Origin: Candidatus Omnitrophota bacterium
Lineage (GTDB): Bacteria > Omnitrophota > Gorgyraeia > Zapsychrales > JANLHA01
Assembly (NCBI GenBank): GCA_029560465.1
Contig: JAKQKX010000016.1
Coordinates: 1,248-65,247 of the forward strand
Direction: 5' to 3'
DNA length: 64,000 bases
Below the pieces are notes generated by a model. The model was not told the DNA's origin. It did no database searches and saw nothing but the letters and a program-made list of their open reading frames with translations. The translations under genes and the position numbers were made by a program. Below are positions 3,301-25,119 of the stretch, in pieces; positions within the stretch are counted from its first letter, which is position 1; the number at the start of each line of letters is the position of its first letter.

Positions 3301-6300
3301 GAAGGGTTGATTTCTTCTGGCAACCGGAGAGTTTATGGCCTTACACAGAATGACTTTGATGGATTTTTACTTCCTTTCGAGGATGTTAAGGATATTATTC
3401 CAATATTTACAAAGAGAAAAGGGGGGCTTAGAGGTGTTTTTGTAAGCAGACAAGAAGGCGCGAGTGTTGATCAAACGTTTTTTGAGGACGCAATGCGAGA
3501 CCCCCAAAGACTTATTTCTGCATTTTTCTACGCGAATTATCTTGGCCAGGAACCATCTGTTGAATTTGGTATCCCCACGACGGAAATGCGCGTAAAGTTA
3601 CAAAGAAGAAAGAATGAAGTGTATTTTGAAAATCCTGCTTATCGGGATACCGGGTCAGCGGAGAATAGAAGACATCTTCAAAATATTGTCCTTCTTCATT
3701 ACGCATTGGCAAAAACCCGTTCCAATATATTTGATAAGTATTTAGATGTTTCATTCCCGGGGATCAAGAGGCTTTTGCAAGTACCTGTACCCGATGTTCG
3801 CCAGCTTTTTGACAGGTATGAGACGTTATTTTCTAAGAAGTATCCTCAACCAATAGCAACTCAATTGGCCGGAAAAAGACTTTATGATTATTTTGGTGTG
3901 AAATTAGAAGGTGCCGGGGATGCCCCCACCGGATTCATTAATGAGGTTTCAAATTTTAAAACACAGGCCAAATCCGAATATGCGGAAGAAGAGGCAGGCT
4001 TTGCAGATTATATGAAGAACAAGGTTGGGGAGTTTGTAGATAGCCATCCTTTAATAATTTTTATGCGAACGGCCATACAACAGTATCGAGATCGGTTGTC
4101 GGTTCGGGATATAGAAAAGTTTGAAGAAACATTGGATCAATTGCGGACAAAAAGATTTGAAAAAAACTATAATTCACATTTGGACAGACAAAATATATCA
4201 AATATTTTAACTAAGCTCGCAGTGGTTTATTCACAAGAACCGCGAAGAGAAGCGCATGTTTCCGCTGTGTTTGCAAATGAGACTAGCTTGGAGTATTACC
4301 TCAAGGAAGAAGAAATTTTATCATTTAAGTCATTGCTGGAATTGCCGGATTGGGCCGTGTCTGACTATTTAAACAGAAAAAGCTATAGTGCCAATAAATT
4401 GATTGAGAATGCGCTGAAACAAGGCACGCCTCTAAGCGAAATATTTGCGTTTATGGGAACCCGCCTTGCGTATGCCGATAGACGAGAAGTTTTCGATAGC
4501 TTATTTTTGGGATGGTTCTCCGAGAATTCCAGGTACTTGTTCGATTTCTTTAAAACAAAGCTTAACAATAATTCACAGGAAATAATCGTGTGGTTCCTTG
4601 GGATGTTTTCCAAAAAGGACGCCCTTGAATTAATTGATAAGTTTTCCAGGGGGCTTTTGTACGAGAGAGCCAAAGACGCCCGCACCAATGTCGATGAAGC
4701 CGCGGAATTAAGAAACCTGGCCATTGCCTTGCTTGAATATATTTACAGGCAGACATCAAAGATATTTCACGCCGATGAAGAATCCGCAAAAGTTTATTTG
4801 GACTTAATAAATGAACGTATTGAAGAATCTGGGAAATCGGGAGATCAAAATTATGTGCGAGAGGTGGTTTACAATGCGCTTATGGTCCTGAGCGCTTCGG
4901 TTGCTCTTAAAATAGAATTCAGTCAACCGGAAGAACCTTCTGAGGATGGAACACCAGATTTTAAGTCTCAAAAGACAAGTCTTTTTCAACGGCAGGAATC
5001 TTTGGGGCGGTGGGAGACTGATTATAATTCACAATTTGCGCTCCATAATTTTGGCTGGAATGATAGAAAAGCAGCTTCTCAATCTGTTTTTGTGAGCCGT
5101 TTAACCGATTTATCAGTTGATCAGCTTAAGAAACTTTTAAAACAGAGATTGCGATACGTGGCGTCGCGAGCGGATGTTGAGTATAGAGGCGAAGTGTTTT
5201 CTTTGTCCAGTTTAAATGATTTTTTTGCAAATTTAATCACTTTAATAATATTAAAAAAAACACGTAACCCAGGATGGGAGAACACTAAGGAAAGCTTAAA
5301 CAGGCTCGATGATTTGATGGGCATCAAGGTTTCCTATTCCCAATATGATAAAAAGACATTTGCTATCCATGCGAAAATGAATTTGAAGATAGACCAGGAT
5401 GAAATCAACACAATATCTTACGACGCGATTAAAGAGAATTTTGTCGGGACTACGATCCCCTCTCCAGAACTTGATTATGTGTGGGGAGCTTATGTGGCGG
5501 CAAATGATCTCCATGGTAATTTTCCGGAAATCGTCCCCTTGCTTCAAAATCCCAACGCTGCAAACGAAAGCATTTACAATCCGATTGTTTTTCTCGAAAG
5601 ACACAAATATGGCAGGAGGGTCTCCTATCGACAAATAGTTCAAAAATTTTTTATGGATTCATCCGTTTACTCGAAACTTTTTAATGCCTATTTGAAAGTA
5701 CAGGGGAAAGGATATGTATACGGTAAATTCAGATCATTGGAAGAACGGCTGGCCTGGATAGCAAGAGTGCTGCCGAACAAGTCGATCATAAAAGACAGCA
5801 TTATTAACCTGTGGGAGACCGATATTTTCCCGGAGATAATCGCTGATTTGCCAGTTTTGGTAAAGTTGGCTCGACAGGCTTCCAGTGAGGGAGAAGGTTT
5901 ACTGCGGGATATGTGGGCGATCCTGGGGGAGATGGACGATGATGTGGGCCGATTAAAAAGGTTAAACGAGCAGATTGATTTATCACCAAAAAAAATACAT
6001 CAATTGTTGGATTTCTATGAAACCGTTATCCCTTTAGCGCTGTCACCCCAAAAAATAGCTCGATATGGAGCAACGGCATATATGCTGTGGCGGTTATTGC
6101 CAGAAAACGCCGGATTAGGCCTCTCGGAAAACCTTGAAGCCTTAACGAAATTTATGCCGGAGCCAGGAGTATTAAGAGACGAATTGTTAATGCGGATCGC
6201 AAACAAGTATGCAATGCGTTTGCAAGACGTGCCTCTTGTTTCTGAGAAATTGTATTCCAATAATTTGTTGTCACGAAGCAGGGACTTAAGAACAGAAGAC

Positions 6301-9237
6301 TTCGTTTCCGAGACCCTGTTACATCTGTTCGGTGGAGCAAAAACGGAAGACAGGAGAGATATTTTGTTGTGGGTCGTGGGCGCGCAGAGCAAGCCACTCT
6401 TCATAAGCGACATCGAGAATAAATATAATATTGATTTTACGACTTTGCCTAGCGACATAAAATTGCTTCCGGCAACAATGCGAGAAAAATTTATTGAAGG
6501 GTTCATGCTTGGTGATAATGGAGTCCTGGATCCTCAAAATGATAACGATAGACTCGTTATGTCCGACTTCTTGGAGCGCCTGTTTTTATACCTGTTCCCC
6601 GAGGGAACCAAGGGCATAGGCAACGAGGAGAGGCTGCTTATATCCAAAGTTTTTCTTATTGTTATGAAATCTTTCCCTCCATATCGAAGAGTACAGGTTA
6701 TAAAGGCCTTGGCGGCCCTACGCGTAAAGGCTGATTTTGAAAAAACAAGCACGGGGGAACGGCTGGCCGTCCTTCTGGGAGTGTTAGGGCCCGTTGGGAT
6801 AAAGGTTGCACAGTATTTATCTGAGAACGAAACGCTGGTTTCAGATGAGAAAATGCGCTCGAGCTTAGGCGCACTACGACACAAAGCCCCGGAGATTACA
6901 AAGATTTCAGCGTTTTCCGTGTTGGAGAAGGAAGTCCCCTTGAGTGAAGTATTGGTGCGAGAAATGGGCGAGCCCGTTGGCGTCGCCTCAATCAAACAGG
7001 TTAATCGCGGGGGATGGCTGGATATCGAGACATTAGCTGAATTGGTGATTCGTAAAGCTCGAGGGGCGGATATGAATGAAGTCAGAGAAAAAATGCGCGC
7101 TTATCAGGCTAAGGAAATTCCATTTTCTGAAGCGGTCGCGTTTGTGGTCGAAAAAGCTCAGCAATATAAAATAAATTTGGAGGAGGCCACGGCCTCGGTT
7201 GTTTTTAAAATTCGACGCCCTAATATGGAAACGACCCTCGGCACAGATTTTGCGGCCCTTGATGATGTGGCTCGGGAATTGCAAGGCACGGCTCATAAAG
7301 GCGAAGCCATTAATATCAGCGATTTGGTTCAAACCGTTAAAGAATGGGTGATCCTCGAGATGCTTTTTAGTAATGAGGCAAAGTTTGCCAAGATGCTTAT
7401 GGACCTGGATTATACGTGGTCTGAAAATTTTCAACAGCAGGCAGGGGTAACAATCGTTCATCCCAAAATATTGTATGTGACGGATTCGCTCATTGTTGAG
7501 GAAGAAATTCAAGGAGCCCCCGTATTAAGTCTTGCGCCGAAGCAACAGCCAATAACGATGGAAGACGTAATGGGCGCGGGATATTCCCGTTCCGAGGCTG
7601 AGCGGGTTTTTGTCGCATTGTCCTCAGTTGACCCTCGGCAAGCGCACCTCACGTTAAGTCTTAAGAAAGCCGGATTCCCAGAGGAAGAATTAAGCAACCT
7701 GACTAAAAGAATGCTTGCTTATGACTACGGGAAACTACGCGAGTTATTACGTCAAATGTTGTTGCACCAAATATTTGTTGATGGTGTTTTTCACGCCGAC
7801 CTTCATCAGGGAAACATCCTCATCACGCCTGATGGCAGGCTTGTGATGATAGATTGCGGCAATGTCGGCAGATTAAACAGGGCTCAAATTGAAGGAGCAA
7901 AAATTTTATTAAAAGGATTGTCGCTCAGAGAAAAAGATCTCATAAAACAAGGAGTCGATGAGATTTTCTTAAATGCCACGTATGAAGACGGAGTTCAGCC
8001 GAAAACTCCCAACATAACGTTAGCCGATATACAGGAAATATTGGGTAAAGGATATGACCTGAAAATGACAATGAACTTGATTAGCGTGAGAGCCGTTCAG
8101 GGAGCAAAGAATACCCCCGGCGGGAAGGATTTCTCGACGTTTTTAAAAGCCTTCACCCAAGCCATGTATCTATTTCCCACAGATCTAATAAACGGTATGG
8201 CGACACTACAGGCAATCGCTCAATATATTTCGATGAGCGAGGAGGATGCGATACGTGCGGCTCAAGAGCAAGCAAAGTATTTTGTCGTGCAGGAGGTAGA
8301 CACGGCTGAGGGAGAAGCCGAAGCTCAAGGAGATATATTACAGATAGCGGAAAGGATTTTTTATAAAAAAACAGAGCGGTCTTTCTTACGTTCGGTATGG
8401 CGACCCATGGTTTTTCGTATGCTGGCAGCTCCTATAAAAAGAGCGACCGCCAAAGCCCCGTCTATAGGAAGCAATGTGATGTCACTTGTTAGGGTGCAGG
8501 GCCGGCAAATTATAGAAGAAAATATTAATGAATTTTTAAAAAGACAGAATTCCGAAATTGGGGATGTAGTGAAGGACATGATATCCGTTCCATTTGCAGA
8601 GAAGTTTGTGACCTCTTATGTGGAGCGTGGCATGAAAGAAAGTCGAGGAGGAAAATTCTTAGCCCCCATCGCGATGCCTTTGTTGAAAGGCGTACTATTC
8701 TTAGTCCGGCCGTTGACGAGGATATATGTTGAGGCTGCCAAAGAATGGGTTGATACCACGGGGAAACAGTATATCGCAAGCATTGCCCCGCACATGACGA
8801 TAAGAGAAGGGATTGATCTTTTATCACAGGTGTTTGTGGACGATTTTTCGAGTATAAAAAAGAAATTTGATGAAGGACGAACCAATGGTGAATCCGTCCC
8901 CCTGGCCACGGAGCCGTTATCAGATATCCGAGTTAGGGAGGACATGCACGGAGGTTCTCAATTAGGCAATGAGAAAACTCTGTTTGCAACCGAAACAAGT
9001 TCTTCGGTTCAACAAAATCCAGGCGGTATTGATTTTAATCTCGATTTGTTGGAGCTTGAAATTCATGGGCAGGAGAGTGATTTTAATTTGCCCAATGTTA
9101 ATCAGAATTTCGACCACATTCAAATAGATGACGGTCTTTTGCCGGTGATTATTAATATAACCCCGATCACGACAACGCTCCCTATCATTTTAGGCACGGC
9201 TGAGAGCGAAAAACAGCAATTGACCAGTGTTCAATAA
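382..9237 (+). CDS. Very large (2951 aa) secreted/surface multidomain protein with an internal M48-type zinc metallopeptidase module and an ABC1/UbiB-type atypical kinase module
   Basis: Uninterrupted 8.8-kb ORF. N-terminal hydrophobic signal-like segment (WTVLFSFFFSLIAPPRSSA|QE). HEXXH (IIAHELSHALQH, nt ~2521-2550) is followed ~35 aa later by EYDADMRALEL (EXXAD), the hallmark pair of M48/HtpX-type peptidases. Further on, LGPVGIKVAQYLS (nt ~6781) ... VVFKIRRP ... FHADLHQGNILITPDGRLVMIDCGNVGRL (nt ~7795) matches ABC1/UbiB kinase motifs (LGPTFIKLGQ / FHADPHPGN...DFG). The N-terminal ~320 aa and C-terminal ~60 aa are shared with the 766-aa protein at 44123-46306. Confidence 0.85.
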   Translation: MKSSPLFKFSTWTVLFSFFFSLIAPPRSSAQESFSLPDPGTMITITPAFVPPMLKGMKVNLEDPFTFDFIFDSGNANLTPEELKSEANKLIKYFLASLTIPEDDLWVNLSPYEKDRVIPKEFGVTEMGRDLLGQDYILKQLTASLIYPEKDLGKEFWNRVFSKARALYGTEAIPINTFNKVWILPDKAVVYQNQDTVFVLESHLKVMLEGDYLSLKENLSNKKLGIDKLDKEAIQKLNDVSAAIIKEVVIPEIEKEVNSGQNFAKLRQVYHSLILAKWYKQNLKASILNWKYSDKRKVVGVDVEDKSINEKIYEQYLEAFKKGVFNYIKEDYDVAKQEVIPRKYFSGGIELKVPLEVETDPAMLAKATSTGKLNWIKGIYRQPRVSARFVNEYINQKFREGAVKEGQPIDLPNGKQAQVYTVKGLLKSTGQFGHIGLGAKERKGAEVVYTDGGLPVIYLDSDYAENLTVRDNEKFKVERWEEQKIALGRERGLSRPLTAQEMRQWIKNNTTQAAELLQEWDSQAPSLVPLFEKAEAKGLLPSDEEIAETYTREEDFRDLNLAAGRWGIRSASSRGIMPQHAAYTVEAGESYDDIVIKELAKQSGVSVDDLEANFERTVSMLEESLGKTGFSQPNADVVAKKIHEIFDRLIKVYQTKTQEAPGRLRIVDANTVNAFVIRKRADVYFYKGLYEALYDISTRMNVPLTEDMIAFIIAHELSHALQHTSRQGLDIRDLNEKASPYLIQMIKNGEYDADMRALELMDKAGYSVFGAVDAMTFLEFITGTSQAENVLSSHPYVSLRKHRLSQIIFDQKTNVFTNVKASRVPMVGNGRIRSQDVDFRHLMDKSEEELLAMAQNAESLVALDELTGMLVLRKRMNALKGLVREDQLKAAFLRDVYVQAVLAATGRTSQGIDYSDMKGAAAIYDFGKETTTENVLERNAPAFEDNPDDVIKKINESLKDDASREGVAAKNVLEGLISSGNRRVYGLTQNDFDGFLLPFEDVKDIIPIFTKRKGGLRGVFVSRQEGASVDQTFFEDAMRDPQRLISAFFYANYLGQEPSVEFGIPTTEMRVKLQRRKNEVYFENPAYRDTGSAENRRHLQNIVLLHYALAKTRSNIFDKYLDVSFPGIKRLLQVPVPDVRQLFDRYETLFSKKYPQPIATQLAGKRLYDYFGVKLEGAGDAPTGFINEVSNFKTQAKSEYAEEEAGFADYMKNKVGEFVDSHPLIIFMRTAIQQYRDRLSVRDIEKFEETLDQLRTKRFEKNYNSHLDRQNISNILTKLAVVYSQEPRREAHVSAVFANETSLEYYLKEEEILSFKSLLELPDWAVSDYLNRKSYSANKLIENALKQGTPLSEIFAFMGTRLAYADRREVFDSLFLGWFSENSRYLFDFFKTKLNNNSQEIIVWFLGMFSKKDALELIDKFSRGLLYERAKDARTNVDEAAELRNLAIALLEYIYRQTSKIFHADEESAKVYLDLINERIEESGKSGDQNYVREVVYNALMVLSASVALKIEFSQPEEPSEDGTPDFKSQKTSLFQRQESLGRWETDYNSQFALHNFGWNDRKAASQSVFVSRLTDLSVDQLKKLLKQRLRYVASRADVEYRGEVFSLSSLNDFFANLITLIILKKTRNPGWENTKESLNRLDDLMGIKVSYSQYDKKTFAIHAKMNLKIDQDEINTISYDAIKENFVGTTIPSPELDYVWGAYVAANDLHGNFPEIVPLLQNPNAANESIYNPIVFLERHKYGRRVSYRQIVQKFFMDSSVYSKLFNAYLKVQGKGYVYGKFRSLEERLAWIARVLPNKSIIKDSIINLWETDIFPEIIADLPVLVKLARQASSEGEGLLRDMWAILGEMDDDVGRLKRLNEQIDLSPKKIHQLLDFYETVIPLALSPQKIARYGATAYMLWRLLPENAGLGLSENLEALTKFMPEPGVLRDELLMRIANKYAMRLQDVPLVSEKLYSNNLLSRSRDLRTEDFVSETLLHLFGGAKTEDRRDILLWVVGAQSKPLFISDIENKYNIDFTTLPSDIKLLPATMREKFIEGFMLGDNGVLDPQNDNDRLVMSDFLERLFLYLFPEGTKGIGNEERLLISKVFLIVMKSFPPYRRVQVIKALAALRVKADFEKTSTGERLAVLLGVLGPVGIKVAQYLSENETLVSDEKMRSSLGALRHKAPEITKISAFSVLEKEVPLSEVLVREMGEPVGVASIKQVNRGGWLDIETLAELVIRKARGADMNEVREKMRAYQAKEIPFSEAVAFVVEKAQQYKINLEEATASVVFKIRRPNMETTLGTDFAALDDVARELQGTAHKGEAINISDLVQTVKEWVILEMLFSNEAKFAKMLMDLDYTWSENFQQQAGVTIVHPKILYVTDSLIVEEEIQGAPVLSLAPKQQPITMEDVMGAGYSRSEAERVFVALSSVDPRQAHLTLSLKKAGFPEEELSNLTKRMLAYDYGKLRELLRQMLLHQIFVDGVFHADLHQGNILITPDGRLVMIDCGNVGRLNRAQIEGAKILLKGLSLREKDLIKQGVDEIFLNATYEDGVQPKTPNITLADIQEILGKGYDLKMTMNLISVRAVQGAKNTPGGKDFSTFLKAFTQAMYLFPTDLINGMATLQAIAQYISMSEEDAIRAAQEQAKYFVVQEVDTAEGEAEAQGDILQIAERIFYKKTERSFLRSVWRPMVFRMLAAPIKRATAKAPSIGSNVMSLVRVQGRQIIEENINEFLKRQNSEIGDVVKDMISVPFAEKFVTSYVERGMKESRGGKFLAPIAMPLLKGVLFLVRPLTRIYVEAAKEWVDTTGKQYIASIAPHMTIREGIDLLSQVFVDDFSSIKKKFDEGRTNGESVPLATEPLSDIRVREDMHGGSQLGNEKTLFATETSSSVQQNPGGIDFNLDLLELEIHGQESDFNLPNVNQNFDHIQIDDGLLPVIINITPITTTLPIILGTAESEKQQLTSVQ

Positions 9238-12488: not shown

Positions 12489-13013
12489 ATGATCGATCTG
12501 TTGAGAAAACGGCGGAGCGTGCGGGCGTATCTGAATCAGACGATTGAGCCGGAGAAAGTGAGTATCCTTAAAGAGGCGTTGCTGCGGTCTCCTTCCTCGC
12601 GTGATATTCAGCCTTGGATGTTTATTTTTGTGGAGGATGAGAAGATGCTCAGCCATCTTTCCCGGGTGAAAGTCCATGGCTCGGCTTTTTTGGCCGGCGC
12701 CCAGATGGTCATTGTCGTCCTGGGCGACGAAGCGGCTTCGGATGTCTGGATAGAAGATTGCTCTATCGCTGCGGTTGTGGCCATGTTAACCGCTTCTTCG
12801 CTTGGGCTTGGCAGCTGCTGGGTACAGGTCAGAAACCGTCAGCATTCTCCGTCAGAAAGCGCTGAGGATTATGTCCGCAAAGCCCTGAATATCCCGGACA
12901 ATTTCCGGGTGGAAGCCATGATCGCACTTGGGTATCCGGATGAAGAAAAAGCCGGCATACCATTGGACGAGCTGCGGTTTGATAAAATTAAAACCGGGAC
13001 GTTTGCCGGTTGA
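12489..13013 (+). CDS. Nitroreductase-family protein
   Basis: 174 aa. N-terminus MIDLLRKRRSVRAY is typical of the nitroreductase fold. RBS aaggagg 7 nt upstream. Confidence 0.75.
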   Translation: MIDLLRKRRSVRAYLNQTIEPEKVSILKEALLRSPSSRDIQPWMFIFVEDEKMLSHLSRVKVHGSAFLAGAQMVIVVLGDEAASDVWIEDCSIAAVVAMLTASSLGLGSCWVQVRNRQHSPSESAEDYVRKALNIPDNFRVEAMIALGYPDEEKAGIPLDELRFDKIKTGTFAG

Positions 13014-13211
13014 ACTATGACGGGCAGAAAACGCTGTAAGTTTTCCCGTCCGGCCTTGGGCCCCGAGCGCCCCATCCCCAAGGCATCATCGTTTCAGAGA
13101 AACGGCTTCTTTTCCATTTTGAGAGGAGCGTTTCTTCGTGGCTTCGGGAAAGAAATTTTGCATAAAGGAGTATTTTGTCGTATATTAACTTAATTGTAAG
13201 AGCAGGACAGT

Positions 13212-14474
13212 ATGACCAAAATAACGGGAGTTGATATGCCAAGAAAACGGAATGTCGGGATGGGATTAAGTATTTCCCAAGGGGACGAGTTGAAGATATT
13301 ACGCCAGATTGTCGATATAACGTCTTCCGAGATGGACTTGGCGCGCACGCTGAAAGAGGTCGTTGGCATCGTGAATGAGGCGACCCGGGCGGATTCGGTT
13401 TTTATCTACCTTTTTGACGAGCGGAAAGAAAACCTGACGTTGATGGCCTCTAAATTGCCGCATAAAAGAATGCTGGGGCATCTTGTCTTGAAGGTCGGGG
13501 AAGGGATTACCGGCTGGGTAGCCAAGGAAAACAAGCCGGTGGCCATCAATGAGAACGCTTATCAGGACGCGCGGTTCAAGAATTTTGACGTCTTGCCGGA
13601 AGACCAATACGAAGCGTTTCTGTCCGTCCCCATCATTTATAAGGGCAAGGCGATCGGGGTTATTAATGTCCAGCATAAAAAGCCGCACGATTACAGTTCC
13701 CAGACCGTCACCCTGATCTGCACGATCGCCAAACAGGTCGGAGGGGTGATTGAACACGCGGTCCTTTATGAACATATCAAGCTGAAAGCGAAGCAGTTTG
13801 ACAGCCTGGTCAAGGTGAGCCAGTCCATCACATCGGAGAATTACCTGGATGAAATTTTAAACCTGATCGTGGTGGTGACGGCGGAAATGCTGAACTCCAA
13901 GATTTGCTCGATCCTTCTTCTGGATGACAGGAAACAGAAGGAGCTGGTGATCAAGGCCACCCAGAGCTTGAGCGAGGAATACAAGCAGAAACCGAACCTC
14001 AACGTGGACCGCAGCCTTTTGGGGGAGGTGATCAAACGCAAAAAGCCGTTGATGTTTCAGGATGTCCGCCAGGAACAGAAATACTTTTACCGGGATTTGG
14101 CGGTGAAAGAGAACCTGACTTCGATGATCGCGGTCCCCATGATTGTCAAAGACACCGCGATCGGAGTTATAAATGTGTATACCAAAGAGCCGCATGTGTT
14201 TTCGGACGAGGAAACAGGGGTCCTTCAGATGGTGGCCAACCAGGCGGCGGTCGCGGTGGAAAACACAAAATTGATGCAGGAGGCCCTCAAGGCCAAAGAA
14301 GCGTTGGAAACGCGCAAGCTCGTTGAGCGGGCTAAGGGTATTTTGATGAAGCTGAATAATTTGTCCGAACAGGCCGCGTACCGGTTGATCCATAAAAAGA
14401 GCATGGACACCTGCCGCTCCATGAAAGAGATCGCCGAGTCCGTGATCCTGATGGATGAATTGAGCTCCTCGTGA
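13212..14474 (+). CDS. GAF-GAF-ANTAR RNA-binding antitermination regulator
   Basis: 420 aa. Two GAF-like regions (…LKVGEGITGWVAKENKPVAINENAYQD… and …AVPMIVKDTAIGVINVYTKEPHVFSDEE…). C-terminal ANTAR-like helix bundle (ALETRKLVERAKGILMKLNNLSEQAAYRLIHKKSMDTCRSMKEIAESV). Confidence 0.8.
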   Translation: MTKITGVDMPRKRNVGMGLSISQGDELKILRQIVDITSSEMDLARTLKEVVGIVNEATRADSVFIYLFDERKENLTLMASKLPHKRMLGHLVLKVGEGITGWVAKENKPVAINENAYQDARFKNFDVLPEDQYEAFLSVPIIYKGKAIGVINVQHKKPHDYSSQTVTLICTIAKQVGGVIEHAVLYEHIKLKAKQFDSLVKVSQSITSENYLDEILNLIVVVTAEMLNSKICSILLLDDRKQKELVIKATQSLSEEYKQKPNLNVDRSLLGEVIKRKKPLMFQDVRQEQKYFYRDLAVKENLTSMIAVPMIVKDTAIGVINVYTKEPHVFSDEETGVLQMVANQAAVAVENTKLMQEALKAKEALETRKLVERAKGILMKLNNLSEQAAYRLIHKKSMDTCRSMKEIAESVILMDELSSS

Positions 14475-14598
14475 AGGTGTTTTAGCGGAGGCGCGCTAAA
14501 GCCTGGGATCCGGGTGCGGGACAGGCAGAAGGCGGCTTTTTTAGGGCGTTATTTTGGATTTTCAAAATTCGTAAATGCCGTGGATAAAAAAAACACCT

Positions 14599-14632
14599 TG
14601 ACAAAAAGCTCCGGAAATATTATATTTTAACC
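14599..14632 (+). promoter_or_regulatory. Sigma70-like promoter (TTGACA-17nt-TATATT) for the outer-membrane-protein/amtB operon leader
   Basis: ccTTGACAaaaagctccggaaatatTATATTtt. The same 14-mer CCTTGACAAAAAGC recurs at the carA promoter (31051). Confidence 0.55.
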
Positions 14633-14666
14633 AGACCATTGACGGTTTATCATAACGGGCAAGGAA

Positions 14667-14700
14667 GTCCGGATTCTTTATAAGATTCCGGGCTTTTTTA
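14667..14700 (+). terminator. Leader intrinsic terminator T1 (gtccgga...tccgggc + UUUUUU)
   Basis: Stem-loop followed by a T6 run, ~35 nt downstream of the predicted -10. Candidate attenuator of the ANTAR-controlled leader. Confidence 0.5.
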
Positions 14701-14725
14701 TTGTTAGTGCTTTTGGGCGTTGACG

Positions 14726-14768
14726 TCCTCTTGATCGCAGGGATTCTGCGGAAGAGGGCTTTTTTTTT
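14726..14768 (+). terminator. Leader intrinsic terminator T2 (tcctctt-[cgcag ggatt ctgcg]-g-aagaggg + U9)
   Basis: 7-bp outer stem enclosing a 5-bp inner hairpin, followed by nine T. Lies ~110 nt upstream of the OMP gene start. Confidence 0.55.
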
Positions 14769-14877
14769 GATATTTGATAAAGGGCATGGGGGTCCATAAC
14801 GAGCAAAGACAGCTTGCGGGTCCGTTGGCGGGGCAGAAAAATGGTGCAATAGTGAATAAGAAAATTAAGGAGAAACG

Positions 14878-15645
14878 ATGAAGTTAAAAAGTGAAATTCT
14901 GATCAGCGTTTGTATGACAGCCCTCTTTTGTGGACTTCCGGCTAAGGCGGAAAGCAAAACCATTTTTGGGGATTATCTTAAGGAGAACGCCGTTGAGGTC
15001 GAATTGAGCGCCCGTACCGATTTTTATTCCAAATATATCTGGCGCGGCTTTCGCCTTGATGATGACTATGTTCTTCAGCCAGGGGTTTCGGTAGGTGGGT
15101 ATGGATTCGAGGTTAATGTCTGGGGCAGTTTTGACACAGCCCAGAATGACGCTTTGGGGTCGGATGAAGTAGACACGACGGTGAGTTACAGCCGTGATTT
15201 TGACGCAGTATCCCTTTCCGTGGGGCACGTTTATTATGATTTTCCTTCCGCGGGAACGTTTAGCAAGGAGTTTTTCTTAGGAGTGGGTTACGACACCCTG
15301 CTGGCCCCGTCTTTCACCTGGTATCACGATTATGGCCGAGAAAGCCAGGGGGGAGGCCATGGGGATTATATGGTGCTCGCGTTGGGGCACACCCTGACGC
15401 TTAATGAGGAATACGGGATTACTTTGGATTTGTCCGGGCATGTTGGGTATAACCAACGCCTGTTTATTAAAGGAAAAGGCGGCGATGTTGCGTTGGGGGC
15501 GGGGCTGACAGTCCCTTTGACAGAGACCCTTTCCTTATCTCCCAGTTTGAATTACAGCCTTCCATACGGAGACATGGAAGATTCTTCCGACGGTAATCAG
15601 GATGATGAATTTTATTGGGGTGCCGGGGTGAGTTGCCGTTTCTAA
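14878..15645 (+). CDS. Outer-membrane beta-barrel protein (porin-like), first gene of the amt operon
   Basis: 255 aa. Signal peptide, alternating aromatic/glycine-rich beta-strand pattern, C-terminal ...GAGVSCRF ending in Phe. RBS aaggagaaacg-ATG. Confidence 0.7.
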   Translation: MKLKSEILISVCMTALFCGLPAKAESKTIFGDYLKENAVEVELSARTDFYSKYIWRGFRLDDDYVLQPGVSVGGYGFEVNVWGSFDTAQNDALGSDEVDTTVSYSRDFDAVSLSVGHVYYDFPSAGTFSKEFFLGVGYDTLLAPSFTWYHDYGRESQGGGHGDYMVLALGHTLTLNEEYGITLDLSGHVGYNQRLFIKGKGGDVALGAGLTVPLTETLSLSPSLNYSLPYGDMEDSSDGNQDDEFYWGAGVSCRF

Positions 15646-15694
15646 TGTTCAGTGATTTTGTCCGGGGTCAGTCCCGGATCGAAAGGAGTTCGAT

Positions 15695-17083
15695 ATGTTT
15701 AGAAAAATTTTAAAAATTCTCCCTGCGCTCGCGGTTATCCTGGGGGTCGGGGTGATGCTTGGCGCGGGCTTGGGGATGGCGGAAGAGCCGACTGTGGCTG
15801 GTAACGCTGCGGCCATCGAGGAAAAAAGCGTGGCGATGGATACGGTGTGGACGCTTATCGCCGGGATGCTGGTGATGTTCATGCAGGCGGGGTTCGCGAT
15901 GGTGGAAACTGGTTTCACCCGGGCGAAGAATGCCTGCAACATTATGATGAAAAACTTGCTTGATTTCACGGTCGGGGCGGTGATTTATTGGGCTGTCGGT
16001 TTTGGGATTATGTTCGGGGCCGGAAACTTGTTTTTCGGGACCAGCGGCTTTTTCCTGGCTGATACCGGAAGCACGTTCGCCTCTCTGGACTGGAGTCTGG
16101 TCCCCTTGGCGTGTAAATATTTCTTTCAAATGGTTTTTGCCGCGACGGCGGCGACCATTGTTTCCGGGGCCATGGCGGAACGCACCAAGTTTTCGGCGTA
16201 TCTGGTGTACAGCATGGTGATCAGCGCGTTGATTTATCCGGTCGTGGGCCACTGGATCTGGGGTGGCGGGTGGCTGGCTGAAATCGGGATGTGGGATTTT
16301 GCCGGGTCAACGGTTGTGCATTCCACGGGGGCCTGGATGGCGCTGATCGGCGCGATTTTCCTCGGGCCTCGGTTAGGGAAATACCGCCCGGATGGGTCTT
16401 CCAACGCGATCCCCGGCCATAATATCCCATTGGCCACGTTAGGGGTTTTTATCCTCTGGTTCGGGTGGTACGGGTTTAATCCCGGAAGCACGATGGCGGC
16501 GGTCCCAGGCATCGCTCATATCGCCATGACGACGACGATTGCTGCGGCGGTCGGGGTTAACGCTGCGATGGTGACATCATGGGTGATGTTTTCCAAACCG
16601 GATATTTCCATGGCGTTAAACGGCGGGCTGGCGGGCCTGGTGGCGATCACGGCGGGATGCGCCTTTGTGTCTCCCGGGAGCGCGGCTTTGATCGGACTGG
16701 TGGCCGGCGTTCTGGTCGTCCTATCGGTTGTCACTTTTGATAAGGTTTTTCATATCGATGATCCGGTGGGGGCGGTGTCGGTGCACGGGGTTTGCGGTGC
16801 CTGGGGCACGCTGGCTGTGGGTCTTTTCGCGCAGGACATTTTTTCTCCAGGGACAACCGGAAACGGGTTGTTGTTCGGCGGAGGTATCAAGTTGCTGATG
16901 TCCCAGCTGGCTGGCGTGGGCTCGGTCATGCTCTGGTGTTTTATCTGCGGGGTTGTCCTTTTCTCAGCCATTAAAGCGACCATCGGGTTACGGGTGAGCA
17001 AAGAGGAGGAGTTGCGGGGTCTGGATATTGATGAACATGGCATGGAGGCTTACTCAGGATTCCAGATTTTCACGACGGAATAA
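15695..17083 (+). CDS. amtB: Ammonium transporter (Amt family)
   Basis: 462 aa. Signal peptide plus 11 TM segments. Amt signatures (DFAGGTVVHSTGAW-like: DFAGSTVVHSTGAWMALIGAIFLGPRLGKY; GFNPGS; C-terminal GLRVSKEEELRGLDIDEHGMEAY). Confidence 0.92.
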   Translation: MFRKILKILPALAVILGVGVMLGAGLGMAEEPTVAGNAAAIEEKSVAMDTVWTLIAGMLVMFMQAGFAMVETGFTRAKNACNIMMKNLLDFTVGAVIYWAVGFGIMFGAGNLFFGTSGFFLADTGSTFASLDWSLVPLACKYFFQMVFAATAATIVSGAMAERTKFSAYLVYSMVISALIYPVVGHWIWGGGWLAEIGMWDFAGSTVVHSTGAWMALIGAIFLGPRLGKYRPDGSSNAIPGHNIPLATLGVFILWFGWYGFNPGSTMAAVPGIAHIAMTTTIAAAVGVNAAMVTSWVMFSKPDISMALNGGLAGLVAITAGCAFVSPGSAALIGLVAGVLVVLSVVTFDKVFHIDDPVGAVSVHGVCGAWGTLAVGLFAQDIFSPGTTGNGLLFGGGIKLLMSQLAGVGSVMLWCFICGVVLFSAIKATIGLRVSKEEELRGLDIDEHGMEAYSGFQIFTTE

Positions 17084-17167
17084 TCGCAGCTGTCCGCCCA
17101 ATCTGTGTAACCCCTGGGGGGAAGAAAAAGAAAAAGTTTTCAATATACAATAAGGAGGGACAATCCC

Positions 17168-17509
17168 ATGAAATTAATTATCGCGATGATTCAGCCGCAT
17201 AAACTTCCGGACGTGAAAAAGGAGCTTTTTGCCGCAGATGTCCATAAGATGACCGTGACCAATGTGCTCGGATGCGGTCAGCAGAAAGGATACAACGAGA
17301 CGTACCGGGGTGTTATGCACGAGGTGAACCTGTTAAAAAAAGTCCGTTTGGAAATCGCCGTGAATGAGGATTTTGTCAAGCGGACGGTTGACGCTATTGT
17401 CCGGGGGGCCAAGACGGGAAAAATCGGGGACGGGAAAATTTTTATTCTCGATTTGCCGGAATGCATCCGGGTGCGGACAGGCGAAAGGGGGAGCGAAGCC
17501 ATCGGGTAA
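17168..17509 (+). CDS. glnB: Nitrogen regulatory protein P-II (GlnB/GlnK)
   Basis: 113 aa. [20 protein letters not shown]... classic P-II. T-loop region YRGVMHEV. Placed between the two amt genes. Confidence 0.9.
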
Positions 17510-17573
17510 TGGGCGTAAGAGTTTTTCTTCGGGTCGGTAGGAGAGGATCAAGACAGAAAATAAGGAGGGGAGA

Positions 17574-18914
17574 GTGACACACATAAACCGCGTTAAAACG
17601 TTATTTCTGATCGGAGCCGCTTGTCTGATGATGGGCTCGGGTTGTCCTGCTTTTGCGGACGACGGAGCCGTTCCCAGCGTTACGGGCCTGGATACGCTTT
17701 GGGTGCTGATCACTGCTTTTTTGGTCTTTTTTATGCAGGCGGGGTTTGGGATGGTGGAGGCGGGTTTTATCCGGGCTAAAAATACCTGTAACATTTTGAC
17801 GAAAAATTTTATGGATTTTTGCATGGCGTCTTTGGGGTTTTTTATATTTGGATATGCGATCATGTTCGGGGAGGGGAACGGATTCCTCGGATTAACGGGG
17901 TGGTTTTTGGCGGGTGCGGAGTCGGCCGCCGGCGTTCCTCTTTATGCGTTCTGGCTTTTTCAGGCCGCCTTTTGCGGGGCGGCGGCCACGATCGTGGCCG
18001 GAGGCATGGCTGAACGGATGAAGTTCCAGGGGTATCTTATTTATTCCTTTGTTATTTCGGCGTTTATTTATCCGATCGTCGGGCATTGGGTCTGGGGTGG
18101 CGGCTGGCTGGCGGACCTTGGCTTCGCGGACTTCGCCGGATCCACGGTCGTTCACTCTCTCGGTGGTTTCGCCGCTTTGATCGGGACCATCATCCTCAAG
18201 CCGCGGATCGGAAAATATAACCCGGACGGGTCAGTCAACGCGATTGCCGGGCACAATATCCCCCTGGCGTCACTCGGGGTTTTTATCCTTTGGTTCGGGT
18301 GGTTTGGTTTTAACCCGGGCTCAACGTTATCCGTTGGAGACGGCAGCCTTATCGCCCGGGTGGCGATTAACACCAATCTGGCTGCGGCGGCGGGTGGGAT
18401 CGCGGCGATCATCACCGTGTGGGCGAAGTTCGGCAAGCCGGATTTGTCCATGGCCATGAACGGCGCTTTGGCCGGCTTGGTTGCGGTCACCGCGCCCTGC
18501 GCTTTTGTTGAGCCCTGGGCTGCCATTGCGATCGGCGGGATCGGCGGGATTATTGTTGTGTTTGGCGTTGTGTTCTTGGATCGCCTCCGGATTGACGATC
18601 CGGTCGGGGCCGTTCCTGTTCACGGTTTTAACGGCCTTTGGGGGACTTTGGCGGTCGGGATTTTTGGCCGCCAATCTTTGGGGCTGGCCCATGACGGCCT
18701 GCTGTATGGAGGGGGGGTGACACAACTGGGGATTCAGTTTCTGGGTGTTATGTCGGCCATCCTATTTATTGTGGTGACCATGGGAACGCTGTTCAAATTG
18801 ATTGATTCGACCATCGGATTGCGGGTGACGGTTGAAGAGGAGCACCGCGGACTGGATATCGGAGAACACGGCATGGAATCCTATTCGGGGTTTCAGATTT
18901 TTACGACATCATAA
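17574..18914 (+). CDS. amtB: Ammonium transporter (Amt family), second copy (GTG start)
   Basis: 446 aa. Paralogous to 15695-17083 (DFAGSTVVHSLGGFAALIGTIILKPRIGKY; GLRVTVEEEHRGLDIGEHGMESY). RBS aaggagggg. Confidence 0.9.
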   Translation: MTHINRVKTLFLIGAACLMMGSGCPAFADDGAVPSVTGLDTLWVLITAFLVFFMQAGFGMVEAGFIRAKNTCNILTKNFMDFCMASLGFFIFGYAIMFGEGNGFLGLTGWFLAGAESAAGVPLYAFWLFQAAFCGAAATIVAGGMAERMKFQGYLIYSFVISAFIYPIVGHWVWGGGWLADLGFADFAGSTVVHSLGGFAALIGTIILKPRIGKYNPDGSVNAIAGHNIPLASLGVFILWFGWFGFNPGSTLSVGDGSLIARVAINTNLAAAAGGIAAIITVWAKFGKPDLSMAMNGALAGLVAVTAPCAFVEPWAAIAIGGIGGIIVVFGVVFLDRLRIDDPVGAVPVHGFNGLWGTLAVGIFGRQSLGLAHDGLLYGGGVTQLGIQFLGVMSAILFIVVTMGTLFKLIDSTIGLRVTVEEEHRGLDIGEHGMESYSGFQIFTTS

Positions 18915-18957
18915 AAAGGCGCGTGTTTTTGATCCTGGGGTGCGTGGTCTTCTTTAA

Positions 18958-19152
18958 ATGAAGTTCTCCCGGGGACGAACCCGGGAGACGGGAGAGGAGG
19001 CGATCTGCGGTATGTGGGTGATCGTTATGCTTGTGCTTTTGGCCGGGACATCTTTTTTGATGTTCAAAAAATATTATTGGTCAAAAGTATTTTATACGAA
19101 AGAATCTCTTATTACGATCCTGAAAAAAGAGCATGAAGGGGCGGGATATTAA
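18958..19152 (+). CDS. Possible small single-TM membrane protein
   Basis: 64-aa ORF with one hydrophobic helix (MWVIVMLVLLAGTSFLMF). A strong hairpin (18966-18987) overlaps its 5' end, so coding status is uncertain. Confidence 0.25.
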   Translation: MKFSRGRTRETGEEAICGMWVIVMLVLLAGTSFLMFKKYYWSKVFYTKESLITILKKEHEGAGY

Positions 19153-19319
19153 AACGGCCGTCTGTGTTACAGGAGGGCGGAACGGGGCAGGACGGAGAAA
19201 TGAGCCCCGATCGGTGCCCTGAAAATCTTTTCCCTTTGCGGGCGCAATGCTTTATAATAAGCTCATTTCTAGGGAAGCATAAGGCCGCTGCAGGGACCAA
19301 TTAAAACGGAGGTAAAAAG

Positions 19320-21425
19320 ATGGAAGAACGGTGCGAACAATCAGCAGGGCAAGCAGTATCTGATATTTACGGCCAGAATGTTTTTAGCCTTAAAGTCATG
19401 CGTAATTATCTTTCGGAGAAGGCGTTTCAGTCTTTGAGCAAGACAATCAAAGACGGGGGGCCGCTTGATCCCGGCATCGCGGATGAGGTGGCGGACGCGA
19501 TGAAGACCTGGGCGGTGTCCAAGGGCGCCACGCATTTTACTCATTGGTTTCAGCCGTTAACCGGAACGACCGCGGAAAAACATGATTCCTTCATTGTCCC
19601 GGACGGCGAGGGCGGTGTCCTTTTGGACTTTTCCGGCAAGGAATTGATCCAGGGCGAGCCGGACGCTTCCAGTTTTCCATCTGGAGGGCTGCGATGGACT
19701 TTTGAAGCCCGGGGGTATACCGGTTGGGACCCGACGAGCCCGGCTTTTATTAAAGAAGGGCCGCAATGCGCCACGCTGTGCATTCCAACGTATTTTATCG
19801 GGTGGAACGGCGAGGCGTTGGATAAAAAGACTCCGCTGTTGCGGTCCATGAAAGCGCTCTCCAAACAGGTTTGCCGCTTGGCCGAATTGTTCGGCATTGA
19901 AACCAAGGGCAAGCAGGCCTATGCCACTTTGGGCGGTGAGCAGGAGTATTTTCTCATCGACCGTGAGTATTATTTGCAGCGCATTGACCTTATCCAGACG
20001 GGCCGCACGCTTTTTGGAAAGGAGCCGGCCAAGCATCAGCAGATGGCTGACCATTATTTCGGCGCCATCAAGAGCCGCATTATGGGGTTCATGGAAGATT
20101 TTGACCGGGAGATGTGGAGGCTCGGGGTTCCCACCAAGACACGCCATAACGAGGTGGCTCCCGGGCAATATGAGGTCGCGCCGATTTTTGAAAGCCTGAA
20201 CCTCGCGGTGGACCACAACATGCTGTGCATGGAGGTCATGAAACGGGTGGCCGAGGAGCATGATTTGGTCTGCCTCCTGCATGAAAAGCCGTTCGCCGGC
20301 ATTAACGGTTCCGGGAAGCACAATAACTGGGCTATTGTGGGACCCGACGGGAAGAACTGGCTGGATCCAGGGGCGAGCCCGCATGAAAACGCCAAATTCC
20401 TGGTCACCCTGTGCGCGGTGATTAAAGCCGTGGACACCTATGCCGGCGTGTTGCGTTCTTCGGTGGCGACCGCGGGCAATGATCACCGGCTGGGATCGCA
20501 TGAGGCACCTCCGGCGATTATTTCGATTTTCCTCGGCGAACAGCTTACGGATATTATTGAACAGATTGAGAAGGGGGAGGCCAAACGCTCCAAGTCCGGC
20601 GGTGTCCTTGAGATCGGGGTGGATTCTTTGCCAAACCTTCCGCGCCACGCGACCGACCGGAACCGCACGTCGCCGTTCGCTTTCACCGGGTCCAAGTTCG
20701 AGTTCCGGGCCGTGGGGTCTAACATGAGCTTGGCTGGCCCGAACATTATCCTCAACACGATCGTGGCCGACGCTATCGGCGATATTTGTTCTCAGCTGGA
20801 AAAAGACCTGGCCGCGAAAAAGGATTTTAACGCGTCTTTGCAAAAAGTTTTGAAGAACATCATTAAAACGCACAAACGGATTATTTTCAACGGGGACAAC
20901 TACACGGAAGCCTGGGTCAAGGAAGCCGCTCAACGGCAGCTCCCGAATCTTAAAAACACGCCGGAAGCCCTGGCCGTGATGAGCAACCCGGGGGTGGCCG
21001 CGCTTTTTGAACGGCATGGCGTTTTAACGAGAAAAGAGTTGGCGTCCCGCAACGACGTGTATCTTGAGGCCTACAACACGACCATTGATTATGAAGCCAA
21101 GCTTTCCGTGGACATGGTCAAGACCCTGATTATGCCCGGGGTGTTTAATTACCAGGAAGAGCTGGCGTGCAGCATTAAATCGACGGAGGCGGTCAATAAG
21201 TTTAAATCCACGGCGGCCCGCAAACTGCTCACGGAAATCACCCGGGAGTCGGAGGCGGCGTTGAAGAAGACAGACAAACTCCAGTCCGCCATCGCGAAAG
21301 GAGCCGCTTTAAAGACCAAGGCCGCCATGGAGGATTTGCGCGTCACGATTGATACCCTGGAAGGGCTTGTTCCGGCTGATTATTGGCCGTTACCCTCTTA
21401 CGCGGAAATGCTGTTTATTGTTTAA
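19320..21425 (+). CDS. glnN: Glutamine synthetase, type III (GlnN-like)
   Basis: 701 aa, the size of GSIII. GS active-site-like motif NGSGKHNNWAI. RBS ggaggt. Immediately downstream of amtB-glnB-amtB. Confidence 0.8.
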   Translation: MEERCEQSAGQAVSDIYGQNVFSLKVMRNYLSEKAFQSLSKTIKDGGPLDPGIADEVADAMKTWAVSKGATHFTHWFQPLTGTTAEKHDSFIVPDGEGGVLLDFSGKELIQGEPDASSFPSGGLRWTFEARGYTGWDPTSPAFIKEGPQCATLCIPTYFIGWNGEALDKKTPLLRSMKALSKQVCRLAELFGIETKGKQAYATLGGEQEYFLIDREYYLQRIDLIQTGRTLFGKEPAKHQQMADHYFGAIKSRIMGFMEDFDREMWRLGVPTKTRHNEVAPGQYEVAPIFESLNLAVDHNMLCMEVMKRVAEEHDLVCLLHEKPFAGINGSGKHNNWAIVGPDGKNWLDPGASPHENAKFLVTLCAVIKAVDTYAGVLRSSVATAGNDHRLGSHEAPPAIISIFLGEQLTDIIEQIEKGEAKRSKSGGVLEIGVDSLPNLPRHATDRNRTSPFAFTGSKFEFRAVGSNMSLAGPNIILNTIVADAIGDICSQLEKDLAAKKDFNASLQKVLKNIIKTHKRIIFNGDNYTEAWVKEAAQRQLPNLKNTPEALAVMSNPGVAALFERHGVLTRKELASRNDVYLEAYNTTIDYEAKLSVDMVKTLIMPGVFNYQEELACSIKSTEAVNKFKSTAARKLLTEITRESEAALKKTDKLQSAIAKGAALKTKAAMEDLRVTIDTLEGLVPADYWPLPSYAEMLFIV

Positions 21426-21451
21426 TGCGGGGATATTCTTGAGACTCATAC

Positions 21452-21498
21452 CCTTGGGGCCGACGCGTTGTGCCGTCGTCCCCAAGGTCTTTTTTTAT
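21452..21498 (+). terminator. Rho-independent terminator after glnN
   Basis: 14-bp stem (ccttggggccgacg / cgtcgtccccaagg, one mismatch) with 8-nt loop, followed by tcttttttt. Confidence 0.7.
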
Positions 21499-21505
21499 AT
21501 CTATT

Positions 21506-22216
21506 ATGATTTTATATATCAAACATATTGCTTTGGAAGGGCCGGAAACCCTGGGGACATTTTTGGCGCAGCAGGGGTTTTCTTCTAAGACGATTGAGGT
21601 CTGGCGCGGAGACCCCCTTCCGGAAGACCTGTCCGGGATCCAGGCGGTTGTGTGCCTGGGCGGCCCGATGAATGTTTATGAGGAAGAACAATATCCTTTT
21701 TTGAAACGGGAGGATTCTTTGATCCGGAAGGTCCTTGAGGAAGACGTGCCGTTCTTGGGGATTTGCCTGGGTTCCCAGCTTCTCGCAAAAGCCAACGGGG
21801 CCAGGGTGTCCCGGGCCAGGGAAGAGGAAATCGGGTTTTCTCAGGTCCGCCTGACGGAGGAGGGGATGCGGGACCCATTGCTGAAAGGGGTCCCGCCTGA
21901 CATGGAGGTGTTTCAGTGGCACGGGGACACTTTTGATATCCCTGCCCAAGCCGCCTGGTTGGCCCGGGGGGCTGTTTGCCCTCATCAGGCTTTCCGGGTG
22001 GGACGCTGTGCGTACGGGGTTCAGTTTCATGTTGAGATAACGGGAAAGAATATCCAGGAATGGGCCGAGGCTTATCTGGATTTAAGCACAGCGGCTCATC
22101 GGCTGAAAAAAGACGTCTTGCTGACGCGGTATGCGCAAAGAAAAGAAAAGTTCCACCAGACAGCGGAACAGATATATAATAATTTTTCGAAAATCATCAC
22201 CGGACATCGGCGTTAG
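21506..22216 (+). CDS. Class I glutamine amidotransferase (GATase1-like)
   Basis: MILYIKHIALEGPETLG... (MKILIIQHI.CEGPG-type N-terminus). Catalytic Cys in FLGICLGSQLLA. The ORF track start 21470 is probably too far upstream. Confidence 0.75.
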   Translation: MILYIKHIALEGPETLGTFLAQQGFSSKTIEVWRGDPLPEDLSGIQAVVCLGGPMNVYEEEQYPFLKREDSLIRKVLEEDVPFLGICLGSQLLAKANGARVSRAREEEIGFSQVRLTEEGMRDPLLKGVPPDMEVFQWHGDTFDIPAQAAWLARGAVCPHQAFRVGRCAYGVQFHVEITGKNIQEWAEAYLDLSTAAHRLKKDVLLTRYAQRKEKFHQTAEQIYNNFSKIITGHRR

Positions 22217-22260
22217 GGGCCCGGATGCAGGACGGTTTATAAACTTAAAAGGACGGGCGT

Positions 22261-23940: not shown

Positions 23941-23982
23941 GGGCAACAAATTATTTGCAATCAGAAGTTTCTGCGTCATAAT

Positions 23983-24020
23983 AAGGGCAGGCTTAAAAGC
24001 CTGCCCTTATGTTATTTCCA
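23983..24020 (+). terminator. Rho-independent terminator after nadE
   Basis: aagggcaggc-ttaaaa-gcctgccctt followed by a T-rich tract. Confidence 0.6.
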
Positions 24021-24592: not shown

Positions 24593-24596
24593 CGCA

Positions 24597-25070: not shown

Positions 25071-25119
25071 GGGCGGCCCGGGCCATGCGGGACGGAGTGG
25101 GTTTTGAACCGTTAAACGC

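Follow-up and report, generated by a model that had tools for sequence, protein, structure and literature searches.

The DNA considered here is a stretch of 64,000 nucleotides (nt) from a Candidatus Omnitrophota bacterium (contig JAKQKX010000016.1; this whole stretch is hereafter called the window), in which an open reading frame (ORF) at 13212–14474 encodes a predicted regulator with two GAF domains and one ANTAR domain, followed by a leader region and by genes for a putative outer-membrane protein (OMP), two ammonium transporters (amt), a P-II signal protein (glnB), and a glutamine synthetase (glnN). The question raised by this locus is whether the regulator governs the genes behind it by antitermination of transcription in the leader, which of these genes it would reach, and to what signal it would respond. 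According to the analysis, the product of 13212–14474 very probably acts as a switch that controls the ammonium-assimilation operon through ANTAR-type antitermination, as judged from the sequences compared below. An interpretation of this kind had been put forward in a preliminary description of the window, and it was supported by the ANTAR domain found in a hidden Markov model (HMM) search, by an antiterminator hairpin (P2) overlapping the first terminator (T1), and by the co-occurrence of these elements over 74 loci. All features of the window described below lie on the forward (+) strand unless the strand is given.

The HMM search against Pfam revealed two GAF domains in the regulator (residues ~42–178 and ~212–350) and an ANTAR domain (PF03861) at residues 361–412 (72.8 bits against a cutoff of 27.3, E-value = 1.9 × 10−20), which bears out the preliminary description with respect to two GAF-like domains and a C-terminal ANTAR domain. 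No Response_reg (REC) domain was found in the regulator by Pfam, and the N-terminus consisted of GAF-GAF, as in a one-component regulator. The ORF 13212–14474 stands as described previously, but the length of 420 amino acids (aa) does not: the protein probably starts at ATG 13236 (M9) rather than at the annotated ATG 13212 and has 412 aa, because the homologues begin at the match to M9, a GGGAG Shine–Dalgarno sequence lies ahead of it, and residues 1–18 are disordered (predicted local distance difference test score (pLDDT) < 50 in the AlphaFold2 model). In this model (mean pLDDT 79), GAF-A is followed by a long connecting helix, GAF-B, and a helix running into ANTAR, which forms a three-helix bundle (helices 332–382, 386–400, and 404–419, the first of them coming in from GAF-B). 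Helix 332–382, ahead of ANTAR, is predicted to be of the coiled-coil type and may serve in dimerisation. The ANTAR domain could be aligned with those of EutV (6wsh), Rv1626 (1s8n), and NasR (4akk), and Tyr390 of the regulator stood opposite Tyr164 of EutV, which stacks on the G at loop position 4 (G4) of the RNA target; the corresponding residue is Phe in Rv1626 and Trp in NasR.

Downstream of the regulator gene, a sigma-70-type promoter, TTGACA-17-TATATT, was located at 14598–14626 (11 of 12 consensus matches); it was the top-scoring site in 12900–21600, and both hexamers were invariant in loci L001–L003 of the three closest relatives. The same hexamers and spacing had been noticed previously, with a span of 14599–14632 that is hereby corrected. 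Two hairpins follow at once, namely, P1 (AGACC[AUUGAC]GGUUU, 14633–14648), a putative recruitment hairpin invariant in L001–L003, and P2 (CGGGC[AAGGAA]GUCCG, 14656–14671), the putative antiterminator. Joined by a 7-nt linker, they constitute the minimum free energy (MFE) structure of 14630–14672, and each carries a hexaloop in which the first base is A and the fourth is G; this P1–P2 element at 14633–14671 matches exactly the target defined for EutV, NasR, and AmiR. Positions 14667–14671 are common to the 3′ arm of P2 and to the first five bases of the stem of intrinsic terminator T1 (14667–14699; stem 14667–14693 and U6 at 14694–14699; −20.3 kcal/mol, z-score = −6.2). A second intrinsic terminator, T2, occupies 14725–14768 (stem 14725–14759 and U9 at 14760–14768; −19.7 kcal/mol, z-score = −3.6), and the GUCC of a single-hexaloop hairpin, H2 (GGGC[GUUGAC]GUCC, 14715–14728), is the base of the T2 stem. 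The dual P1–P2 architecture is thus absent at T2, where one hairpin was found, and H2 fits a minimal single-hexaloop site; a P1 partner for H2 was rejected because the 15 nt between the U-tract of T1 and H2 leave no room for it, and covariance model R1 (see below) forces a non-pairing P1 at this place.

Sixteen dual hairpins of distant relatives, none of them taken from this leader or from its copies in L001–L003, were used to construct model R1, which matched both P1 and P2. Its top match on both strands of the window was 14633–14670 (26.4 bits, E-value = 3.7 × 10−5), followed by H2 (E-value = 0.033) and by a third hairpin, H3 (E-value = 0.058), the latter two through the P2 half of the model only; a match at 58949–58997 of the minus strand (E-value = 0.2), inside an ORF and without a terminator, was treated as a chance one. 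Among seven candidates obtained in the 64-kb window in a scan for dual A..G.. hexaloops, only 14633–14671 combined 5-bp stems with a U-run at the distance of a terminator. The window contained seven occurrences of the sequence GGRCRNNGNNGYCC (1.7 expected), three of them within 140 nt of this leader. The preliminary description had given the positions of T1 and T2, which folding confirmed, and had failed to see a dual hexaloop by eye, although one exists at 14633–14671; the alternative antiterminator structures over the 5′ arms of the terminators and the match to an ANTAR-target covariance model, both of which it had proposed to look for, were found in the form of the dual hexaloop at T1, the single hexaloop hairpin at T2, and the first rank of 14633–14670 with R1. 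The Rfam scan of 12500–22500 at E-value ≤ 10 revealed nothing relevant, glutamine riboswitches included; a match of L20_leader over the leader was rejected, as it reached 25 bits, the gathering score being 58.7, and covered the T1 terminator only.

To evaluate the conservation of this arrangement, 74 Omnitrophota genome loci with orthologues of the regulator were compared, 67 of which were informative, i.e., had at least 1.5 kb of downstream sequence. The orthologues were mostly 66–91% identical, with one partial match at 51%. In 49 of the 67 informative loci, the 3.5 kb downstream contained a same-strand gene for amt, glnB, glnN, or OMP, and 44 of these 49 syntenic loci contained at least one hairpin-terminator, that is, a GGRC-N6-GYCC hairpin whose 3′ arm is the base of a terminator. 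In L001–L003, the leader was near-invariant from the −35 box to 14838 (including T1, T2, and the H3 and SL3 structures considered below), whereas the stretch from the ANTAR stop codon to the promoter and the sequence after 14838 were not conserved, and the gene placed after the leader varied (OMP, amt, or the glnN region). A near-invariant leader with divergent flanks and a divergent downstream gene points to a regulatory module under selection.

Over the 74 loci, 104 such hairpin-terminators were in the sense and 14 in the antisense orientation, with the family motif GGRC[RNNGNN]GYCC. In the unconstrained loops (n = 104), position 1 was A in 84 and G in 18 cases, position 4 was G in 102, and position 5 was A in 83 (81% A1, 98% G4, and 80% A5 in the family logo). 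The next gene was amt for 65 hairpin-terminators, glnN for 17, OMP for 14, and the regulator itself for 3. Terminator overlap was recorded for 115 of 153 hairpins, which is a lower bound since at least 12 of the 38 hairpins scored as lacking a terminator do have obvious ones. With P1 defined as a hairpin that has a stem of ≥5 bp and an RNNGNN loop and lies within 20 nt upstream, 36 of 113 cases had one, compared with 3.3 expected, and the P1 stems in the P1/P2 alignment had many compensatory changes. Model R1 gave 60 matches at E-value ≤ 0.01, 58 sense and two antisense. The usual pattern was a first terminator of the leader with P1 and P2 and following terminators with one hairpin each; 23 of these following terminators were directly after a previous U-tract. 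About 20 hairpins began 14–18 nt after a −10 box, with no room for P1, especially before glnN, where leaders with a near-consensus promoter, a single GGGC[A..G..]GUCC hairpin, and an overlapping terminator were found in L012 (9738), L024 (9461), L029 (9712), L030 (11379), L039 (10778), L046 (9546), L049 (11034), and L066 (9822). The leader of the window holds both forms, the dual hairpin at T1 and the single one at T2. It should be noted that the apical loop of the terminator, considered as a possible second hexaloop, was an RNNGNN hexaloop in 14 of 115 terminators and not in T1 or T2, and hence was rejected as a general rule.

Upstream of the regulator gene of the window (13014–13211), no hairpin-terminator module was detected, unlike in a few relatives. 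Such modules were directly upstream of the GAF-GAF-ANTAR gene in L060 (510), L062 (1757 and 1847), and L065 (5890), which suggests autoregulation of the regulator in these three loci.

Two further elements lie past T2 in the leader. The H3 hairpin, GGGC[AUGGGG]GUCC (14782–14795), is a terminal hexaloop placed after the U-tract of T2, has no terminator of its own, and is kept in L001–L003; analogous terminal hairpins, directly after the U-tract of the last terminator, were found in the independent lineages L007 (5442), L013 (9761), and L035 (8927). The SL3 stem-loop, GGGUCC...CGAGC[AAAGACA]GCUUG...GGGUCC (14790–14823), was read from the sequence; it has no U-tract and competes with H3 as an alternative pairing. 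The SL3 pairing was kept in L003 (GGGUCC/GGGCCC) and in L002 (GGGCCC/GGGUUC), while the folding of H3/SL3 revealed no significant stability (z-score about 0).

These data allow a mechanism to be proposed in which the regulator, with its tandem GAF sensor joined through a coiled-coil helix to ANTAR, would control the OMP–amt–glnB–amt genes at the level of transcription elongation, and possibly also glnN by read-through. Transcription would start ~7 nt past the −10 box, near 14633. By default, polymerase would stop at T1, and any polymerase escaping T1 would stop at T2. An active ANTAR dimer would bind P1 first, since it forms from +1, and then P2; the closed P2 would sequester the first five bases of the T1 stem (GUCCG), so that T1 could not form. 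The same protein would next capture H2, whose GUCC is the T2 base, and polymerase would then enter the operon, a sequence of events that would fit the "successive binding" model proposed for EutV. The GAF domains would read nitrogen status (low glutamine and/or high 2-oxoglutarate), possibly with an input from P-II, and nitrogen limitation would switch RNA binding on. Both the binding of the regulator to hexaloop RNA and the prevention of termination by it are predictions drawn from the sequence and from analogy with known systems.

ANTAR proteins recognize hexaloops with A1 and G4 that overlap terminators, and ANTAR sites have been predicted upstream of P-II, amt, and glutamine synthetase genes in many bacteria (Ramesh 2012, PMC3369931). 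The closest parallel is GnfR of Geobacter sulfurreducens, which antiterminates glnK, amtB, and nif leaders through CAGGCAANGGCGCC (Ueki & Lovley 2010, PMC2995071). Like the regulator proposed here, GnfR is an ANTAR antiterminator acting on nitrogen leaders, and CAGGCAANGGCGCC, a C-G-closed A1/G4 hexaloop overlapping a terminator, is nearly the same as GGGCAANGANGUCC of the present leader; a hairpin of the GGC-AANGGC-GCC type in the amtB/glnK leaders corresponds to GGGC[AAGGAA]GUCC ahead of the amt–glnB operon. However, GnfR has a REC domain phosphorylated by a histidine kinase (GnfK) under a sigma-54 cascade, whereas the present regulator carries a pair of GAF domains fused directly to ANTAR, its leader has a sigma-70-like promoter, and the terminators form tandem arrays of up to four. 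The EutV/EutW system of Enterococcus faecalis has the same P1–linker–P2 organization with A1/G4 hexaloops and with P2 over the 5′ arm of the terminator, and a coiled-coil-linked ANTAR dimer with a G4-stacking aromatic residue and successive hairpin binding, features predicted for the regulator considered here; it differs in its REC sensor (ethanolamine via EutW) and eut regulon, compared with GAF-GAF and ammonium assimilation, and many terminators in Omnitrophota, T2 included, carry one hairpin. NasR of Klebsiella oxytoca is likewise a one-component protein, with a sensor joined by a helix to ANTAR and with antitermination of a nitrogen-assimilation leader, but its sensor is a NIT domain for nitrate/nitrite, to which the tandem GAF is unrelated, and its target is nasF. 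Finally, GAF-A resembles the GAF of PtsP (EI-Ntr) and GAF-B that of NifA, both of which are nitrogen-status sensors; the outputs of those proteins are a phosphotransferase and a sigma-54 AAA+ activator, whereas here the output is an RNA-binding ANTAR domain, ligand binding by the GAF domains being predicted.

The same elements might be explained without an ANTAR switch. If T1 and T2 were plain tandem terminators of the ANTAR gene, the hexaloops and the promoter-like site would be there by coincidence, with a DNA-binding factor regulating the operon instead; T1 and T2 indeed lie ~190–290 nt past the ANTAR stop codon, the hairpin directly after this codon (14479–14547), tried as a putative terminator, was not a convincing one (z-score = −1.1, not significant), and promoter-like sites in the region were as frequent as in shuffled sequence (6 vs. 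6.3 expected). This explanation is nevertheless extremely improbable, given that the 11/12 promoter is situated between the ANTAR gene and T1, with hexamers that do not vary among relatives, in contrast to the unconserved DNA 5′ of the promoter, that the same modules occur far from the ends of ANTAR genes (between amt–glnB units and before glnN, often 14–18 nt after promoters of their own), that a plain terminator would not call for the conservation seen at loop positions 1 and 4 (98% of cases), and that the hairpin-terminators have a strand bias of 104:14. It may also be asked whether the GGRC[RNNGNN]GYCC hairpins are the binding sites of another trans-acting factor or belong to a metabolite-sensing RNA, the targets of the ANTAR protein being elsewhere, as might be suspected from the many sites with single hairpins, atypical of classical ANTAR targets, and from H3, which is devoid of a terminator. 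Yet the A1/G4 loop signature together with terminator overlap is precisely what ANTAR proteins are known to recognize, the site is very similar to the sequence proven to be bound by GnfR, the ANTAR gene adjoins the hairpin-terminators in 44 of the 49 syntenic loci, the leader fits no Rfam family at E-value ≤ 10, and a 14-nt hairpin is too small for a riboswitch aptamer; hence, this possibility is regarded as very unlikely. Several points weigh against the antitermination switch itself. It is predicted here from sequence, in an uncultured lineage. T2 and many leaders of relatives have a single hexaloop hairpin, although P1 and P2 are both required for EutV function in vivo (PMC3369931). Such leaders depart from the two-hairpin rule of EutV, yet they are compatible with the structural finding of a minimal ANTAR site of one hexaloop and of successive binding of hairpins by the dimer (Walshe 2022, PMC8934654). 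Loop position 1 of H2 is G rather than A in the window and in L003 (A in L001 and L002), P1 would start no more than 1 nt from the predicted +1, which makes the assignment of the transcription start site tight, and H3/SL3 is outside the terminator logic. The pairing statistics of the P1/P2 alignment are partly circular and were discounted, because the sequences had been chosen for having stems. In addition, glnN has what appears to be a promoter block of its own, and the ligand of the GAF domains is not reliably inferable from ~35% identity to the PtsP GAF; both points are considered below.

With regard to the input, GAF-A (residues 26–192) was closest to the N-terminal GAF of PtsP/EI-Ntr (PDB 3ci6, Acinetobacter PtsP GAF: E-value = 9 × 10−26, identity = 34–36%, template modelling (TM) score = 0.85–0.89; NCBIfam PRK11061 positions 2–166: E-value = 6 × 10−41), and GAF-B (residues 194–377) was closest to the N-terminal GAF of NifA (TIGR01817 positions 2–183, E-value = 2 × 10−28). 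The whole-protein scores with PRK11061 and TIGR01817 were far under the equivalog cutoffs because the GAF parts alone match. The GAF of NifA binds 2-oxoglutarate, and NifA GAF domains can be targets of P-II. The GAF of EI-Ntr (PtsP) binds glutamine, and E. coli EI-Ntr is reported to be reciprocally regulated by glutamine and alpha-ketoglutarate (Lee 2013). The signal is quite possibly glutamine and/or 2-oxoglutarate sensed by the GAF domains, an assignment made with somewhat less than even confidence. The ligand suggested in the preliminary description, 2-oxoglutarate, appears reasonable because GAF-A is PtsP/EI-Ntr-like and GAF-B is NifA-like, with glutamine at least equally likely. If the regulator acts as described above, its input might instead be contact with the P-II protein or another GAF ligand (a cyclic nucleotide, haem/redox, or nitric oxide). 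The P-II gene lies inside the regulated operon at most loci, GAF-B is of the NifA type, and the fold search placed the tandem GAF nearest to the tandem GAFs of PDE2, PDE5, and CyaB2, which bind cyclic nucleoside monophosphates. This alternative was nonetheless considered rather unlikely: the best match of GAF-A in both sequence and structure was the glutamine-binding PtsP GAF, and the match to the phosphodiesterase tandem GAFs, at 13–19% identity, reflects architecture and not the ligand pocket.

The operon following the leader starts with a gene for a secreted beta-barrel-like protein (14878–15645), whose assignment to Gcw_chp is borderline (24.5 bits in Pfam against a cutoff of 24); orthologues of this Gcw_chp-like OMP were found in the same position in L003, L062, L065, L073, and L074. 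It is succeeded by ammonium transporter 1 (15695–17083; PF00909, E-value = 8.6 × 10−128), a P-II signal protein of the glnB/glnK type (17168–17509; PF00543, E-value = 2.1 × 10−27), and ammonium transporter 2 (17574–18914; PF00909, E-value = 2 × 10−130). After a 405-nt spacer comes glnN, encoding a type III glutamine synthetase (19320–21425; GSIII_N, E-value = 1.9 × 10−76), and past it, on the same strand, are genes for a class-I glutamine amidotransferase and a glutamine-dependent NAD synthetase. The gene assignments made earlier (OMP, Amt, P-II, Amt, and type III glutamine synthetase) were borne out by Pfam, the OMP at the borderline level.

The position of glnN in this scheme is less certain. 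No hairpin-terminator leader was detected ahead of glnN in 18915–19320 in the scans, including that with R1, and a conserved block, CCTGAAAAT.TTT.CCC.TTTG.GGGC...TATAAT, common to the window (~19218–19262), L001, and L002, was found upstream of it. This block is probably a promoter belonging to glnN itself together with a protein-binding site, in which case it would constitute a second, DNA-level layer of control. Because of the conserved promoter block and the lack of a hairpin-terminator upstream, glnN could here be controlled by read-through only, and this too is uncertain. The earlier suggestion that the regulator governs both ammonium transport and glutamine synthetase is therefore supported for the amt–glnB operon and, for glnN, extends to read-through at most. 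In many relatives, glnN is a putative member of the regulon with a hairpin-terminator leader of its own, 17 hairpin-terminators preceding it at other loci, and in L002 the same leader as in the window lies directly upstream of the glnN region.

Several other features of the window were observed. Between amt 2 and glnN, a ~46-aa single-helix membrane protein (MWVIVMLVLLAGTSFLMFKKYYWSKVFYTKESL...) is encoded at 19013–19153, in ORF 18958–19152, with a strong Shine–Dalgarno sequence GGAGAGGAGG ahead of it; the protein sequence is conserved in L001, and it has no family match. The region past glnN (21470–38676) is unusually dense in glutamine amidotransferases (class-I GATase, glutamine-dependent NadE, CarA, CarB, PurF-like, and PyrG), among which there are Lnt-like, PMT-like, and IMPase-family genes. 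Upstream of the locus, at 382–9237, there is an ORF of 2951 aa with an N-terminal signal peptide, i.e., a giant secreted or surface protein.

The control of amt, P-II, and glutamine synthetase genes by ANTAR proteins is already known (Ramesh 2012; GnfR of Geobacter), and the tandem-GAF one-component input, the phylum-wide conservation, and the tandem or single-hairpin leaders are new here; since ANTAR antitermination of nitrogen genes is established, the advance is incremental and not conceptual. No GAF-ANTAR or PAS-ANTAR protein had been characterised as of Ramesh 2012 (PMC3369931), a paper of 2020 names NasR and PAL as the only characterised one-component ANTAR proteins, and a review of 2025 lists GAF-ANTAR solely as an architecture. 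The input architecture had been called uncommon in the preliminary description; GAF-ANTAR is in fact among the most abundant ANTAR forms, although no characterised representative is named in the reviews. A literature search for Omnitrophota and ANTAR returned matches to "Antarctic" only.

A broader reading, advanced tentatively and with less confidence than the assignment of the ligand, is that one tandem-GAF-ANTAR protein might be the master nitrogen regulator of Omnitrophota, replacing factors of the NtrBC, GlnR, or NtcA type. It would read glutamine/2-oxoglutarate directly and move successively along arrays of up to four terminators, most of them with one hexaloop (some 8–11 nt after the transcription start site), and H3 would have a further role, such as hand-off, mRNA stabilisation, or translation. 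If this is true, these loci would be natural evidence for co-transcriptional single-hexaloop ANTAR antitermination, which the EutV paradigm does not predict. The system is a testable case, with a highly conserved regulator (mostly 66–91% identity across an uncultured phylum), over 100 sites in a well-defined RNA regulon, and an output consisting of ammonium uptake, P-II, and glutamine synthetase. Its dual, tandem, and single-hexaloop antiterminators form a natural set on which the successive-binding model may be tested, and the system could give a compact metabolite-responsive RNA switch for synthetic biology. For the phylum itself, it would open a first view of nitrogen control in Omnitrophota.

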